IMG/VR virus record: IMGVR_UViG_2609460125_000011
Source of the DNA: a virus
Lineage: Duplodnaviria > Heunggongvirae > Uroviricota > Caudoviricetes
DNA: 8,126 bases
Direction: 5' to 3' (one strand)
Position numbers and translations under genes: made by a program
Notes under the pieces: model-generated
Seen by the model: only the letters and a program-made list of their open reading frames with translations
What the model was told of the DNA's origin: nothing
Database searches by the model: none
Part shown: piece after piece, positions 235 through 8,037 of the stretch
How the letters are laid out: every line of letters begins with the position of its first letter
Position numbering within the stretch: position 1 is the first letter of the stretch

Positions 235-395
235 TTCAGATATGTCAGCAGCCCAAACAGCAGACTCCCCAGCACGCCTATTGCCGCCCACTGAGACGGG
301 GAAACCCTGTCCAGCAACTGCAGGAACCAGTAGCCCGTTCCCACCGCTGACGTGGTGTATGACACACCTGTTGTGATTTTTTCCATCTGGTCCAT
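216..395 (-). pseudogene. S21-type (class II, pinholin-like) holin, 3'-truncated by IS insertion
   Basis: Translation from ATG at 395 is [54 protein letters not shown], with the dual-start Met1/Met4 motif and two hydrophobic segments typical of S21 holins. A GGAG Shine-Dalgarno sits 7 nt upstream. The frame enters the IS terminal repeat at 234/235 and stops at 216 after IS-derived codons (EVYWQ); the charged C-terminal tail is missing. Confidence 0.75.
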
Positions 396-425
396 ACCCC
401 GTCTCCCGTTATCCGGAAGCTGACA

Positions 426-460
426 ACAATAAAAAAGCCACCAGTTAACTACTGATGGCT
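426..460 (-). terminator. Rho-independent terminator immediately upstream of the holin
   Basis: Minus strand reads AGCCAUCAG-uaguuaa-CUGGUGGCU (9-bp stem, one G-U pair) followed by UUUUUUAUUG. Confidence 0.5.
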
Positions 461-702
461 CTGATAACTCATGCAAGCGTCTCAGACGACCCACTGACAC
501 TACCGGTGAGTTTAACGATACCTTCCATTTGACTGGCTCACTTTTTATGATGATGCCGGTGCATTTATCTCCAGCACCAGACTTTCTATCTCAACGCCAT
601 ACGTTGCATTTTTGGTAATATCCGTCAGCGTCAGTGCATTTAGTCCCACTGCCAGACTGTCTTTTATGGCCTGGAATGCCGGGCCAGTACGATGACGTAG
701 TA

Positions 703-1489: not shown

Positions 1490-1521
1490 GTTTACTCACA
1501 TCTGACAAAATCAATATAAAC

Positions 1522-1541
1522 AGCCCCTCCGGAGAGGGGCT
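1522..1541 (-). terminator. Rho-independent terminator for minus-strand transcripts leaving the cargo region
   Basis: AGCCCCTC-tccg-GAGGGGCT hairpin (8-bp GC-rich stem) followed on the minus strand by GUUUAUAUUGAUUUUG. The plus-strand side lacks a U-tract. Confidence 0.5.
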
Positions 1542-1933
1542 GGAGAGTGGCGCTATGTGCCATTCCATGGTGCCGGGTGCCTCCCGGTGAATTCAGTACC
1601 AGCACCTGAATCCGCGATTATCCCATATACCTACTCGCTGATTGCCCCTCCGCACAGGGGGATTCACCATGCCAGTTTCTTTTAACAAACTCCCCGCAAA
1701 CCAGACAACAGTCAACCGCCTGAATTGTGAAGTATTTAAAAATTTCTCCCGCTAACTGATACCCGGCTAACAGTCTGGCGTTTTCTTTTTCAGCAACGGG
1801 AAAGCAACAACCACCACACCCGCCACCAGCACACCGTCAGCCGGCACTGACATTATCCGGCTGCTGCAATGCCATTAACAAAAACAGTAAGCAATCACTT
1901 TTTACCGTAACAGGTGATAATCCAGATATGTAT

Positions 1934-2651: not shown

Positions 2652-2690
2652 GGGAGCAGAATAATAACGGTCCGTAATTAATTTCGCAAT

Positions 2691-2715
2691 AAAAAAACCC
2701 GCTCAGCGGCGGGTT
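2691..2715 (-). terminator. tR'-like intrinsic terminator of the short late leader RNA
   Basis: Minus strand reads CCCGCCGCUGAGCGGG followed by a 7-U tract, about 50 nt downstream of the late promoter. Confidence 0.65.
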
Positions 2716-2762
2716 GTAGAAACTCTTCTAACGCCAGGCATAAAACGCCCATCATTATGACG

Positions 2763-2790
2763 AATTTACCACAGATTCCGGAAAAATCAA
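2763..2790 (-). promoter_or_regulatory. Putative late promoter (pR'-like) downstream of Q
   Basis: Minus strand TTGATT (-35), 16-nt spacer, TAAATT (-10), immediately after the Q stop codon and upstream of the tR'-like terminator. Confidence 0.5.
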
Positions 2791-2795
2791 CCTTG

Positions 2796-3617
2796 TTACC
2801 TAGTTACCTTTTTTAACTGCCGCTCAGCCCATGCTTCTTCAATATCAAACCGGGTCACCAGCGCATCATAAAATTTCTTAACTGTTTTTTCCCATGACGC
2901 GCGTGTTATCTGGTTTGTCACCTCGCATATAGCATTAAATGCCTCCGTTGATGGTAGTCTTTCATAGCCACGACCACCACAACGCTGGCAGTCTCTGATA
3001 ACAGGCATACCACGTTTTACCGACTCTTCACGATGAATGGCGACACCACGCCCACGGCAATCCTTACAGGCGGTGGAAACCTCACCCTTTCCGCCACACT
3101 CCGGACAGGCAACTTTTACCACCTCCCTGACTTTTTTCCATTCTTCCCAGTAAGACGGATACACACCTTTCGTACACTTTGCCCATACCGGCGGCTTACC
3201 ATCCGGATACTGGATCTTGTTTGTAAAAACTATGCTTTCAATAAATTTTTCCCCATAGCAACAAGGGCACTGCTTTTTACTCGCTGCGCTGCGGGCATAA
3301 TCCTCAAAAGCGTACGAAGCCATAATGCGCATCACTACCGGTTTTATTTCTGCCGGAAGTTTTCTCAACGCCGCCACACGATCGCACCGACTGAGTGCAT
3401 AATCTGCCAGTAATTCTGTTGCCCGCGCCCTGTCATTCATACTGATGCCCATTTTCCCCAGGAACGCAGAAAAACCCATCTCAGCCCGATTCTGTGTCAT
3501 GCCCTGCGCGGCCATCACATCAGTGATACTCAGCGCATCTTTTGACGTTGAGGCCGATGCATCGGTCAGGCCAGGGGATTTTGGGGAGTAGTATTTCGGT
3601 AAATCTTCCAGTTTCAT
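2796..3617 (-). CDS. Late-gene antiterminator Q-like protein with a DnaJ-like cysteine-rich repeat region
   Basis: 273-codon ORF placed where Q sits in lambdoid phages (after the nin/rusA region, before the late promoter, tR', tRNAs and holin). Contains CPCCYGEK, CPECGGKG, CKDCRGRG and CQRCGGRG motifs. Resembles the QuuQ/YdfT family from memory. Confidence 0.7.
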   Translation of the reverse strand: MKLEDLPKYYSPKSPGLTDASASTSKDALSITDVMAAQGMTQNRAEMGFSAFLGKMGISMNDRARATELLADYALSRCDRVAALRKLPAEIKPVVMRIMASYAFEDYARSAASKKQCPCCYGEKFIESIVFTNKIQYPDGKPPVWAKCTKGVYPSYWEEWKKVREVVKVACPECGGKGEVSTACKDCRGRGVAIHREESVKRGMPVIRDCQRCGGRGYERLPSTEAFNAICEVTNQITRASWEKTVKKFYDALVTRFDIEEAWAERQLKKVTR

Positions 3618-5765: not shown

Positions 5766-5798
5766 AAAATAAAAACAAAAACCCGCCGAAGCGGGTTT
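5766..5798 (-). terminator. Rho-independent terminator of the relB-relE-hokD operon
   Basis: Minus strand ACCCGC-uucg-GCGGGU hairpin followed by UUUUGUUUUUAUUUU. Confidence 0.6.
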
Positions 5799-5865
5799 AG
5801 TGCGGGTGCGTTGAGGATGCCTGCCACATCAGAGGTGGCGAGGGATTTCTCACTCGCCGGGTCTC

Positions 5866-6021
5866 TTACTCCTCAGGTTCGTAAGCTGTGAAGACAGCGA
5901 CCTCCGTCTGGCCGGTTCGGATTCGTACCTCGCAGAGGTCTTTCCTCGTTACCAGTGCCGTCACTATGACGGTTAAACAGATGACGATCAGGGCGATTAA
6001 CATCGCCTTTTGCTGCTTCAT
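5866..6021 (-). CDS. hokD: Hok-family type I toxin (HokD/RelF)
   Basis: 51-codon ORF below the ORF-track length cutoff: MKQQKAMLIALIVICLTVIVTALVTRKDLCEVRIRTGQTEVAVFTAYEPEE. Matches E. coli HokD as I recall it and has the Hok-family single transmembrane helix. Confidence 0.85.
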   Translation of the reverse strand: MKQQKAMLIALIVICLTVIVTALVTRKDLCEVRIRTGQTEVAVFTAYEPEE

Positions 6022-6092: not shown

Positions 6093-6380
6093 TCAGAGAA
6101 TGCGTTTGACCGCCTCGCTATATACTTCCGAGCGTTCTCTTTTCCCAACAGAAATCACGAAAACGACAACTTTCTCGTCTATAACCTGGTATACAAGGCG
6201 ATAGCCTGAAGACCGGAGCTTAATCTTGTAACAATCAGGCATACCACGGAGCTTGTTTGCTTCAATCCGGGGTGACTCAAGTACTTCAACCAGCTTCTTT
6301 TTCAACTGTTCACGTACCGTCGAGCCCAGCTTTCGCCATTCCTTTAGTGCCCGCTCGTCAAAATCCAGAAAATACGCCAT
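6093..6380 (-). CDS. relE: RelE mRNA interferase toxin (type II)
   Basis: 95-aa product MAYFLDFDERALKEWRKLGSTV...VISVGKRERSEVYSEAVKRIL is essentially E. coli RelE. Its ATG overlaps the relB stop (ATGA). Confidence 0.95.
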   Translation of the reverse strand: MAYFLDFDERALKEWRKLGSTVREQLKKKLVEVLESPRIEANKLRGMPDCYKIKLRSSGYRLVYQVIDEKVVVFVISVGKRERSEVYSEAVKRIL

Positions 6381-6619
6381 CAGAGTTCATCCAGCGTCAC
6401 ACGTACTGGCTTAGGATTACGAAGCCGTTCTTTCACTATCTCCACAAGTTCAGCATCTTCATCACTCAGGAGTGTCTGTTTGAACGGCAAGCGTTCATTG
6501 TCAGCGATATACTCGAGCATGAGACGAAGCGCTTCAGAAGGAGTTACACCCATTTTTTCAAGCGCGGCGTAAGAACGCGCTTTAAGTTCATCGTCAATAC
6601 GCAGGTTAATGCTACCCAT
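6380..6619 (-). CDS. relB: RelB antitoxin (type II)
   Basis: 79-aa product MGSINLRIDDELKARSYAALEKMGVTPSEALRLMLEYIADNERLPFKQTLLSDEDAELVEIVKERLRNPKPVRVTLDEL is essentially E. coli RelB. Confidence 0.95.
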   Translation of the reverse strand: MGSINLRIDDELKARSYAALEKMGVTPSEALRLMLEYIADNERLPFKQTLLSDEDAELVEIVKERLRNPKPVRVTLDEL

Positions 6620-6700: not shown

Positions 6701-6946
6701 AAAGTAGTCGTAAGAACGGTGATCACTGTCCGCTTTGTGCCAGGAGCAGCCATTGCTAAGTCCATCCTGTATTGTGCAGGTCAGCTCTTTTTTAAAGAGT
6801 CCGGCCATCATCTTACTGGTACAGACACCATATACTTTGTGACGGTCAGGCTACATATGCACAACTCAACTTATTCATCTATTTTTTGCTTTAGCATGTC
6901 AGTGAGGTGTACTGGCAATAGCGGACACTACCATTTGTTCTTTTTT

Positions 6947-7734
6947 TAAGCAGCCATCTGATGATATTTTTCCCTGAAGGCTGCCGGGGAGATATTCCCC
7001 AGACGAGAGTGACGACGCTGACGATTGTAGAAAATCTCAATGTATTCCCGTATTACTGAGATGGCTTCATCCCGGTTATTAAACGATAGTGGCTCGGGCT
7101 CTCATTTTCAGCGTTCCCCAGAAGCTTTCCATCGGAGCGTTGTCGTAACAGTTACCTTTACGCGACATTGATGTTTCAGACCAGACTGCTCCTGTATGAC
7201 CCGGTAATCGTATGCGCAGTACTGTGAACCTCGATCAGAGTGGTGGATTAGCCCGGCAGGTGGGCGCTGGCTCCTGAGCGCCATAAACAGGGCTTTACCT
7301 GTCAGCTCTTTTGTCATGCGCTCTCCCATGGCGTAGCCGACAATTTCGCACGTATAAACATCTTTGATGCCAGCAACATACGTCAGGTCCGCCACCCAGA
7401 CCTGATTTGGTGCTGTAGGAGCGAACGTCTGGTTCAGCAGATTTGGCGCAACTGGCAGATTGTGGTTCGGGTTCGTAGTCGCTCTGAACTTGCGTTTCTG
7501 CTTACAGCGTAGCCTCAGCTCCTTACGAAGACGTGCCAGTCGGTCACGACCAACGATGATGCCATTCTCTGCCAGCTCCGTCTGGAGCCGCCGGGTTCCA
7601 TATGTTTCGCGAGTGCGGATATGTGCCACCTTAATCTCCGGTTTTAGCCGCTCATCACTTTGTTTTCTGTCTGAGGGTTCATGCTGTACCCAGTTGTAAT
7701 AACCGCTCCTGGATACACCAAATACCTGACACAT
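6947..7734 (-). pseudogene. IS3-family transposase OrfB (DDE catalytic domain), frameshifted and internally deleted
   Basis: MCQVFGVSRSGYYNWV...NQVWVADLTYV-AGIKDVYTCEIVGYAMGERMT...LIHHSDRGSQYCAYDY, then loses frame. The conserved C-terminus MSRKGNCYDNAPMESFWGTLK...FREKYHQMAA is present out of frame with single-base losses in A and T runs. The segment after DLTYV that normally carries the conserved GWLYL motif is absent. Confidence 0.75.
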
Positions 7735-7848: not shown

Positions 7849-8037
7849 TTAACGCCTTACGCAGTTGCAGAATTTCAGATTCCAGTTCAGCCACCGTGCG
7901 GTAACCAGGAGTCCTGAGCTCCCTTCAGGCGGCGGTAACCCATAAGCGCCTTCACTGATCGAAAGTTGATTTTCAAGAACCGTTCTGACAGCTTCGGCTT
8001 TGAACTCTTTAGAGTAACGTTGGGTTTTTCTGCTCAT
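7849..8037 (-). pseudogene. IS3-family transposase OrfA (helix-turn-helix N-terminus), disrupted
   Basis: MSRKTQRYSKEFKAEAVRTVLENQLSISEGA... starts at 8037 with a Shine-Dalgarno upstream. The frame is lost before the conserved TVAELESEILQLRKALNEARLERDILKK segment, which is present only in another frame, implying an internal indel. Confidence 0.75.

Follow-up and report, generated by a model that had tools for sequence, protein, structure and literature searches.

An STnc100-family small RNA gene and the remnant of a DUF3927 gene in a prophage interval without long reading frames

What is encoded by about 390 base pairs (bp) of phage DNA in which no long open reading frame (ORF) can be found? 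The question is posed by positions 1547-1933 of an 8,126-nucleotide (nt) stretch of viral DNA (IMG/VR record IMGVR_UViG_2609460125_000011), the whole of which is referred to here as the window and along which all positions are counted. An earlier note on this DNA had proposed either small proteins or a non-coding RNA, and its description of the interval held up: no ORF of 60 amino acids (aa) or more is present (the longest overlapping ones have 44, 42 and 40 aa), and the G+C content (0.48-0.535 across 1501-1900) is higher than that of the flanks (0.34-0.35 across 1201-1500 and 0.31-0.44 across 1901-2400). We find that the seemingly empty interval is a copy of a known prophage small RNA (sRNA) together with a broken copy of a known small membrane-protein gene; both families were already known and the interval is mostly already explained by them. 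Taken as a whole, it is probably to be read as an sRNA gene of the STnc100/PasD family and an adjacent DUF3927/TciB-like pseudogene, both on the minus strand and both in the 'moron' region of a lambdoid prophage. The region is far from a chance assembly, as judged by the Rfam E-value given below and by its spread in Escherichia coli, where the same 504 bp is found at at least 95% identity in more than 2,000 complete genomes and, three substitutions apart, in hundreds of genomes.

When the whole window was scanned with Rfam, one outstanding match other than those to tRNAs was obtained, to STnc100 (RF02076) on the minus strand; it scored 124.2 bits (E 1.1e-27), the gathering score being 47, and took in the full model, 1-206 (Table 1). 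A covariance model of our own recovered the same core at 1560-1677 (104.5 bits), and the conserved helices and the 3' intrinsic terminator of the family are both present. The non-coding RNA option was right, and the RNA, which the earlier note had not placed, can be assigned to features that the note had seen separately. The inverted repeat that it reported around 1600-1612 is real and corresponds to hairpin B of the RNA, in which 1606-1613 pairs with 1589-1596. The minus-strand terminator that it placed at 1522-1541, as a boundary outside the interval, does exist as a hairpin (1521-1542) of 9 pairs, 7 of them G-C, followed by TTTATATTGA; however, this hairpin is the last element of the Rfam model alignment and is the sRNA's own 3' end. 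IpeX of DLP12, which has a similar prophage position, was considered as the identity of the RNA and rejected, the DLP12 region of K-12 being without any copy of the core motif. A tRNA-like gene was also rejected, as ARAGORN called only two true tRNAs in the window and nothing tRNA-like at the sRNA. The window sRNA is a routine member of its family, and the interest lies in the family, not in this copy.

The earlier note had suggested a search for RNA covariation across homologous prophages. Homologues were gathered by an exact-pattern scan of the most conserved block, which gave 120 viral contigs, and by a slightly relaxed pattern, which gave 120 genome loci; the genome loci with the core span Enterobacteriaceae, Erwiniaceae and Yersiniaceae. 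An alignment and covariance model were built from 27 representatives of less than 88% identity, after which 130 and 144 matches were realigned, and the covariation tests were carried out on 84 distinct homologues (viral set) and 140 (independent genome set). The comparison, covering more than 200 phage and genome copies from Enterobacterales, supports a closing helix (P1), three hairpins (P2, B and P5) and a pseudoknot. For the nested helices, 96.7% of the cells were paired in the viral set, compared with 87.5% in shuffles, and changes on both sides were seen in 13 of 24 pairs; in the genome set 93.7% of cells were paired and 19 of the 24 pairs had changed on both sides. None of 500 shuffles reached the observed pairing values, and slid controls gave 36-49% in the viral set and 36-51% overall.

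The helices contribute unequally to this result. Hairpin B showed changes on both sides at all 8 pairs in both sets, and P1 at 4 of its 7 pairs in the viral set and 7 of 7 in the genome set; a C-to-G change at 1565 that is specific to the window costs P1 only its outermost, unmodelled pair. P2, whose 4-bp stem closes a 9-nt loop that includes GG, was invariant in all 27 representatives (cells paired, 99.4% and 98.2%), and because it hardly varies, covariation speaks neither for nor against it. P5 is also nearly invariant (99.5% and 98.5% of cells paired, with double changes at 3 of 5 pairs in the genome set), so that covariation says little about either of these two hairpins. RNAalifold, applied to a MAFFT alignment, missed hairpin B while finding P1, P2 and P5; B was recovered after realignment with the covariance model. 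Folding of the window RNA as a single sequence (minimum free energy -67.2 kcal/mol, z -2.0) reproduced P1, P2, B, P5 and the terminator.

The predicted pseudoknot, between the segment that follows P2 and the loop of hairpin B, was shown to be well supported by covariation. Counting of columns fails for this helix on both the MAFFT and the covariance-model alignments, as the register of strand A relative to P2 shifts by 1-3 nt between subfamilies, and the statistics were therefore taken from alignment-free helix searches with shuffled-loop controls. In the viral set we found 37 distinct complementary variants of the helix, and at least 6 contiguous pairs in 39 of 45 distinct combinations, compared with 7.8% in the shuffled-loop control. 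In the genome set, where the windows were fixed and not fitted, the corresponding values were 76% and 25%, and 86 distinct helices were seen. A comparison of self with cross pairing was uninformative, since many subfamilies share mutually complementary CCAG/CTGG helices. In the literature that we searched on the family no mention was found of the pseudoknot or of the tandem arrays described below, and the words 'pseudoknot' and 'promoter' are absent from the text of the preprint 10.64898/2026.05.13.724894. Modelled in this way, the core may be described as an RNA module of ~110-140 nt in which a four-way junction is combined with a pseudoknot and two blocks hardly vary. In the window (1565-1672) and in its homologues P1 (7 bp) abuts P5 (5 bp) without an intervening base, and the pseudoknot stands in for a central arm; the layout is loosely like a tRNA cloverleaf, yet ARAGORN makes no call and PasD has no P5.

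The core is spread through prophages and megaplasmids across Enterobacterales, sometimes in head-to-tail arrays of 4-6 units. Tandem arrays of 3-6 STnc100-family units were seen at L153 945-1993, L143 3111-4490, L042 4375-8520, L008 2321-3355, L217 216-740 and L152 6365-7006. On a megaplasmid of Pantoea sp. App145, from which L143 and L153 come, spacers of no more than 3-48 nt separate some of the units, and one array is set in ~4 kb devoid of ORFs of at least 90 aa. tRNA genes are often found just upstream of the units, on the same strand. Most array units reach the Rfam STnc100 gathering score (five loci scanned, L152 excluded), and some are recognised by our own model only. The exact 24-nt core motif also occurs on three contigs (L136, L168 and L178), labelled Prolixibacteraceae and Mucilaginibacter metagenome-assembled genome (both very short) and Vagococcus (133 kb), which is most likely a result of contamination with enterobacterial DNA.

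Relatives of the window RNA have been detected as transcripts. STnc100 is a multi-copy, prophage-borne family, of which eleven copies are transcribed in enterohaemorrhagic E. coli (EHEC) EDL933, one of them confirmed by Northern blotting (PMC5331693). The copy downstream of stx2B overlaps the Hfq-bound EHEC sRNA EcOnc27/sRNA103 (PMC12711010, PMC7873438), which was detected by Hfq-CRAC and Northern blotting (PMC12711010, PMC7873438, PMC4104026), and Tree et al. described such sRNAs at a 'moron' site between PR' and the lysis genes in eight Sakai prophages (PMC4104026). The window copy resembles STnc100/EcOnc27 in its full-length model match, in having the same helices and the same terminal stem-loop, and in its lambdoid prophage position between Q with the morons and the DUF1737/holin genes. 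It differs from the EcOnc27 locus in that its upstream neighbours are a DUF3927 relic and a phrog_2873 gene, not stx2, and its convergent partner is an iraM-like gene, not AsxR. Compared with STnc100 as defined by Rfam, a 5' end ~29 nt inside the model is proposed, and the pseudoknot, which the Rfam consensus line does not show, is added.

For PasD we drew on Pearl Mizrahi et al. (2021), on the preprint of Zhu, Shabalina and Storz (2026) and on the genome of enteropathogenic E. coli (EPEC) E2348/69. PasD stability is Hfq-dependent, and the RNA has been detected by Northern blotting and has targets by RIL-seq (PMC8550237); a common ancestor for STnc100 and the EPEC sRNAs PasD1/PasD2 is given in the 2026 preprint (10.64898/2026.05.13.724894). 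The likeness to the window extends to the order of parts, with a DUF3927 gene, 37-98 nt and then an sRNA beginning GCAUGGUGAAUCC, and to P1, P2, hairpin B and the pseudoknot (perfect in PasD, 7 bp, AAUGAUC/GAUCAUU), followed by a single-stranded tail and the terminator. In contrast, PasD scores no more than 31 bits with our model, which was built around sequences of the window type, and lacks P5, its DUF3927 gene is intact (52 aa), and the published seed UGUGAG in the PasD1 tail (L245 496-501) does not occur in the window RNA or its tail, so that any seed and targets of the latter would differ from those of PasD. The window RNA thus shares with the PasD subfamily the position downstream of DUF3927 in a lambdoid prophage but not the similarity and the UGUGAG seed.

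PasD1 also served as a guide to the 5' end. Its start as estimated by RNA-seq (NC_011601.1 position 1060260, corresponding to L245 position 360) is the G of GCAUGGUG, and because this mapped end is homologous to 1672 we placed the start of the window transcript there. The transcript probably runs from ~1672 to ~1506 (~165 nt), which by analogy would put the 5' end of the family ~29 nt inside the Rfam model. Upstream, a putative sigma-70 promoter, weak by consensus, can be proposed from homology (Table 1). Its position is kept in the different subtypes of the family and corresponds to that of TTGACT-17-TTAAAA ahead of PasD1, and distant members have TTGACN, 16-17 nt and a -10-like hexamer ending ~9 nt before UGGUG; it was on account of the homology with PasD1 that TTGTCT-17-TTAAAA was preferred. 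A canonical sigma-70 promoter starting from the conserved TTGACT at 1715-1710 was rejected, as the conserved TTAAAA is 24 nt away and no acceptable -10 lies at 16-18 nt, and a sigma-54 promoter was rejected because no match to TGGCAC-N5-TTGC was seen by eye. An RpoD ChIP-exo signal has been reported at the Salmonella STnc100 copies (PMC10794520). By analogy with these relatives, a weak sigma-70 promoter of its own would drive the sRNA in lysogens. As for EcOnc27/sRNA103 and PasD1/PasD2, Hfq would be bound at the terminator and U-tail, and mRNAs of the host or the prophage would be paired by the single-stranded tail that separates the terminator from the core, a candidate target-pairing region; the structured core may act as a stabilising or protein-binding scaffold.

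The small-protein option was only historically right. The 28-codon minus-strand ORF (MSVPADGVLVAGVVVVAFPLLKKKTPDC) is present, and it matches a real small-protein family, PF13064 (DUF3927), with E 2.4e-14 and 53.5 bits against a cut-off of 25. The match, although above the cut-off for membership, covers only profile positions 26-53 of 53, and that to phrog_1470 ('TciB-like', a functional label that is annotation only) covers only positions 23-51 of 54, whereas intact members are ~54 aa long; an intact two-helix ORF of ~50-55 aa with a start codon is not found here. DNA alignment with intact DUF3927 genes revealed the reason. The start codon, a GTG that in intact loci overlaps the stop of the upstream gene tciA, has become GTT, 15 nt have been lost, and another deletion, of 5 nt, puts the sequence out of frame. 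The first helix survives only in another frame, within the 44-aa ORF at 1837-1971. Two further changes are specific to the window lineage, GAA to TAA at 1877-1875 and Leu to Pro (CTG to CCG) at 1843. Among the 1,184 RefSeq complete E. coli genomes with the 61-nt segment the TAA allele was not found once; it is present in one near-identical genome, CP178302.1. The ORF is the tail of a decayed gene in which the start codon was lost, the frame was shifted and a stop codon was gained.

The family itself, as judged from its pattern of codon changes, is truly protein-coding. Across 24 core codons, 648 synonymous and 566 non-synonymous changes were counted in the DUF3927 frame, compared with 96/1114 and 73/1118 in the other frames, and the first 12 residues (RIMSVLADGVLV) are nearly invariant in intact two-helix subtypes (one Gly variant) in spite of many synonymous changes. 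The widespread type of this gene found in E. coli 042 is decayed like that of the window. Its 43-aa form, annotated by PGAP, matches PF13064 with E 1.7e-27, but this '43-aa DUF3927 family protein' of more than 1,000 E. coli genomes is a frameshifted fragment and likely an annotation artefact. The window copy keeps the C-terminal helix, the basic tail and the position directly upstream of the sRNA, and differs from intact members in its missing start codon and first helix, its frameshift and its premature TAA; this 28-codon C-terminal helix of a pseudogene most likely yields no functional product.

The position of the remnant is that of its intact relatives. In all 50 tblastn hits to DUF3927 in the loci searched (mostly viral contigs, together with the window, E. 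coli 042 and two phages) the gene lies 36-118 nt upstream of the sRNA core. PasD1 and PasD2 of E2348/69 each lie ~40 nt downstream of an intact 52-aa DUF3927 gene, and the -35 element of the sRNA adjoins the DUF3927 stop codon; E2348C_RS28250 is one intact DUF3927 gene of this strain. This linkage, in the tblastn loci and at PasD1/PasD2, makes DUF3927 and the sRNA a conserved module, in which a two-helix membrane protein is normally encoded directly upstream of the sRNA; in the window the protein gene is left as a pseudogene remnant.

Table 1. Coordinates of the features discussed (window positions unless a locus is named)
Feature	Position	Strand	Basis or remark
STnc100-family sRNA gene	1512-1701	-	cmscan, Rfam model boundaries
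Probable transcript	1506-1672	-	5' end at G of GCAUGGUG (by homology), structured core, 22-nt tail, terminator, U-tract
Putative sigma-70 promoter of sRNA	1680-1708	-	-35 TTGTCT (1708-1703), 17-nt spacer, -10 TTAAAA (1685-1680)
P1, 5' strand (GCAUGGUG)	1665-1672	-	pairs with 1565-1572; seven modelled pairs
P2 hairpin, CCCC(C)-UGUGCGGA-GGGG	1645-1661	-	nearly invariant
Pseudoknot strand A (AUCAGCG)	1636-1642	-	pairs with 1598-1604 in the loop of hairpin B
Hairpin B (GGAUUCAG / CUGAAUUC)	1589-1613	-	loop holds pseudoknot strand A' (UGCUGGU, 1604-1598)
P5 hairpin, CCGGG-AGGCA-CCCGG	1573-1587	-	adjoins the 3' strand of P1 directly
Tail between core and terminator (AAUGGCACAUAGCGCCACUCUC)	1543-1564	-	candidate target-pairing region, by analogy with PasD
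Intrinsic terminator of sRNA	1506-1542	-	stem-loop 1542-1521 and U-rich tract 1520-1506; terminator scan
Decayed DUF3927/TciB-like small membrane-protein gene	1767-1911	-	PF13064, phrog_1470, DNA alignment with intact genes
Remnant: former start codon	1911-1909	-	
Remnant: C-terminal frame	1898-1767	-	
Remnant: TAA	1877-1875	-	
Remnant: 28-codon ORF	1853-1767	-	
Plus-strand 28-codon ORF	1669-1755	+	antisense of the sRNA 5' end and promoter; not a gene
Upstream neighbour, 108-aa phage protein	1934-2260	-	phrog_2873 (no assigned function), E 2.2e-69
PasD locus L245 (E2348/69)	gene 161-319; sRNA 360-532		
PasD locus L246 (E2348/69)	gene 158-316; sRNA 357-528		

On the minus strand, the surroundings read as the late-regulatory part of a lambdoid prophage. 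In that direction relB/relE, a hok-like gene, rem, a gene for a DUF968 protein (349 aa), RusA and the Q antiterminator (2796-3617) follow one another; downstream of Q are tRNA-Met/Ile(CAT) at 2576-2651, tRNA-Arg(TCT) at 2398-2474, an ORF of 108-117 aa and then the sRNA region, beyond which lie an iraM-like gene on the plus strand (1151-1486), a gene for a DUF1737 protein and one for an S21-type holin, into which an insertion sequence has cut. The arrangement is shared, at 99.4% identity, by E. coli 042, where Q, RusA, the tRNAs, IraM, DUF1737, holin and lysozyme are annotated. The sRNA and the remnant lie in the 'moron' region between Q with the tRNA genes and the lysis genes. The neighbouring ORF (1934-2287), given as 117 aa in the earlier note, probably starts at the ATG at 2260, as residues 10-117 cover the whole 108-position profile of phrog_2873; this gene was left unannotated by PGAP in E. 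coli 042.

Several other features of the window were recorded. The iraM-like gene, which scores 162 bits with NF007393 (cut-off 121), runs towards the sRNA terminator from the opposite side, and its last codons and stop lie within a perfect 12-bp inverted repeat (1456-1467 / 1478-1489). Positions 3-234 are an inverted copy, 97.8% identical, of 6903-7131, the end of an IS3-family element; the pair brackets most of the window, the left copy truncates the holin gene (216-500), and the right-hand element has interrupted transposase frames at 7108-7734 and 7849-8037. The segment just downstream of Q, 2661-2795 (-), combines a terminator-like hairpin (2715-2696, with TTTTTATT after it) with a promoter-like site (2689-2661) and a weak Trp_leader-like match; by analogy with lambda 6S RNA or StxS, this segment may give a PR'/tR' short transcript. 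The hok-like gene (51 aa, 5866-6021, -) has a weak isrK-like match just downstream (5776-5857, -; E 0.42, below threshold) and the relBE pair further upstream (6093-6619, -), and no Sok model match was reported in the Rfam scan of the window.

Several observations weigh against the reading of the stretch as a base-pairing sRNA gene with a dead neighbour. The function of the STnc100 subfamily is presumptive, the effects reported for sRNA103 being those of overexpression only, and the expression, Hfq binding and targets of the window copy are argued from relatives. The proposed promoter is weak by consensus and a generic consensus promoter scan made no call at it, and interruptions in the U-tract that follows the terminator (UUUAUAUUG) make it a poorer site for Hfq binding. 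PGAP annotates the 43-aa frame as a protein in more than 1,000 genomes, so that a shortened peptide made from the ATG at 1853 is conceivable. Finally, the very highly conserved loops and junctions, the pseudoknot and the arrays with 3-48-nt spacing are atypical of simple base-pairing sRNAs and suggest an additional or a different function. Because these properties fit a simple sRNA poorly, we kept in consideration the idea that the STnc100 core is a structured RNA module that does not act mainly by base pairing but by protein binding or titration, as a tRNA-like or processing module, or in cis on the late read-through transcript. Two almost invariant blocks are kept across three families of Enterobacterales while the intervening helices covary, P1 and P5 meet without a spacer around a covariation-supported pseudoknot, and copies frequently lie just downstream of same-strand tRNA genes; in the arrays of 4-6 copies those only 3-48 nt apart have no room for a promoter and terminator each, and some copies have no terminator nearby. 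Nevertheless, this idea seems unlikely as a replacement for the sRNA reading: in relatives the RNA has been isolated as a separate, Hfq-bound sRNA that forms chimeras with targets, most copies come with their own promoter-like element and intrinsic terminator, ARAGORN finds no tRNA-like gene, PasD lacks P5 and a protein partner would be hypothetical. A combined proposal, in which the STnc100/PasD core has a conserved non-antisense function (protein binding, or a tRNA-like or processing role) and the variable tail merely adds target specificity, can be offered tentatively, although we rather doubt it.

The other explanations are far less probable than an sRNA gene beside a pseudogene. The minus-strand peptide, in its 28-aa or 43-aa form, might work as a small membrane protein or a type I toxin, as the earlier note had suggested for the 28-aa form, and a case for this could be made from its hydrophobic helix followed by KKK, from the significant PF13064 match in a family under coding constraint and from the PGAP annotation of the 43-aa form. 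A short hydrophobic ORF adjoining a small RNA is also what type I toxin-antitoxin systems such as hok/sok present (compare 5866-6021). We regard this as very unlikely, however, since compared with the intact 50-55-aa two-helix members the start codon and first helix have gone and the frame is shifted, and the lineage-specific TAA and the Leu-to-Pro change fall on what is left; its Shine-Dalgarno sequence was, moreover, weak in the judgement of the earlier note. The type I identity in particular was rejected: the sRNA shares the strand of the ORF, itself a gene fragment, and lies 65-95 nt downstream instead of antisense to it; within 1500-1950 the Rfam scan matched no type I antitoxin RNA family, and the duplex energy of the sRNA with the ORF region is ordinary, being matched by 85 of 300 shuffles. 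A product of the plus strand is still less credible, whether a peptide from the 28-codon ATG ORF (present as the note had described, nested in a 37-codon TTG ORF at 1642-1755) or an anti-sRNA of the AsxR/AgvB type convergent with the sRNA. Convergent sRNA pairs have been described at this prophage position (PMC4104026), and in other records the plus strand is covered by phrog_27294 and, in E. coli 042, by a PGAP pseudo-CDS (L001 4071-4196, +, equivalent to window 1557-1682). The ORF, however, begins opposite the CAU of P1 and continues antisense through the promoter region; its frame stays open in near-identical relatives only, and stops cut it after 2-21 codons in diverged members of the sRNA family. 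Judged by this pattern it is an accident of the antisense strand, and the phrog_27294 and PGAP entries are most likely artefacts, ORF calls on conserved sRNA DNA. Conservation of the small frames, a check that the note had proposed, was thus found for the family of the minus-strand ORF and not for the plus-strand frame. The anti-sRNA was rejected for the window on the lack of an Rfam match, neither AsxR nor AgvB (RF02703, RF02702) being found at E up to 1 anywhere in the window, and the convergent neighbour here is the iraM-like gene. Least probable of all is conservation as a DNA-level element, a recombination linker between phage modules: both flanks are mosaic, with recombination joints beside and inside the element and the DUF3927 gene, but selection for RNA pairing predicts just such compensatory changes as P1, the pseudoknot and every pair of helix B show, and relatives are detected as RNAs.

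For the window, the result is mainly a clean annotation, of one copy from one of the most abundant and functionally unexplained prophage sRNA families of enteric bacteria, with its usual protein partner dead beside it. For the family it means that the DUF3927-sRNA pair is a conserved two-gene module common to STnc100-type and PasD-type loci, and that the mapped start of PasD1 would put the family 5' end at GCAUGGUG, ~30 nt inside the Rfam model. ORFs called on the strand antisense to the sRNA and the 43-aa 'DUF3927 family protein' are flagged as likely annotation artefacts. The well-supported pseudoknot and the tight tandem arrays are unusual for Hfq sRNAs.

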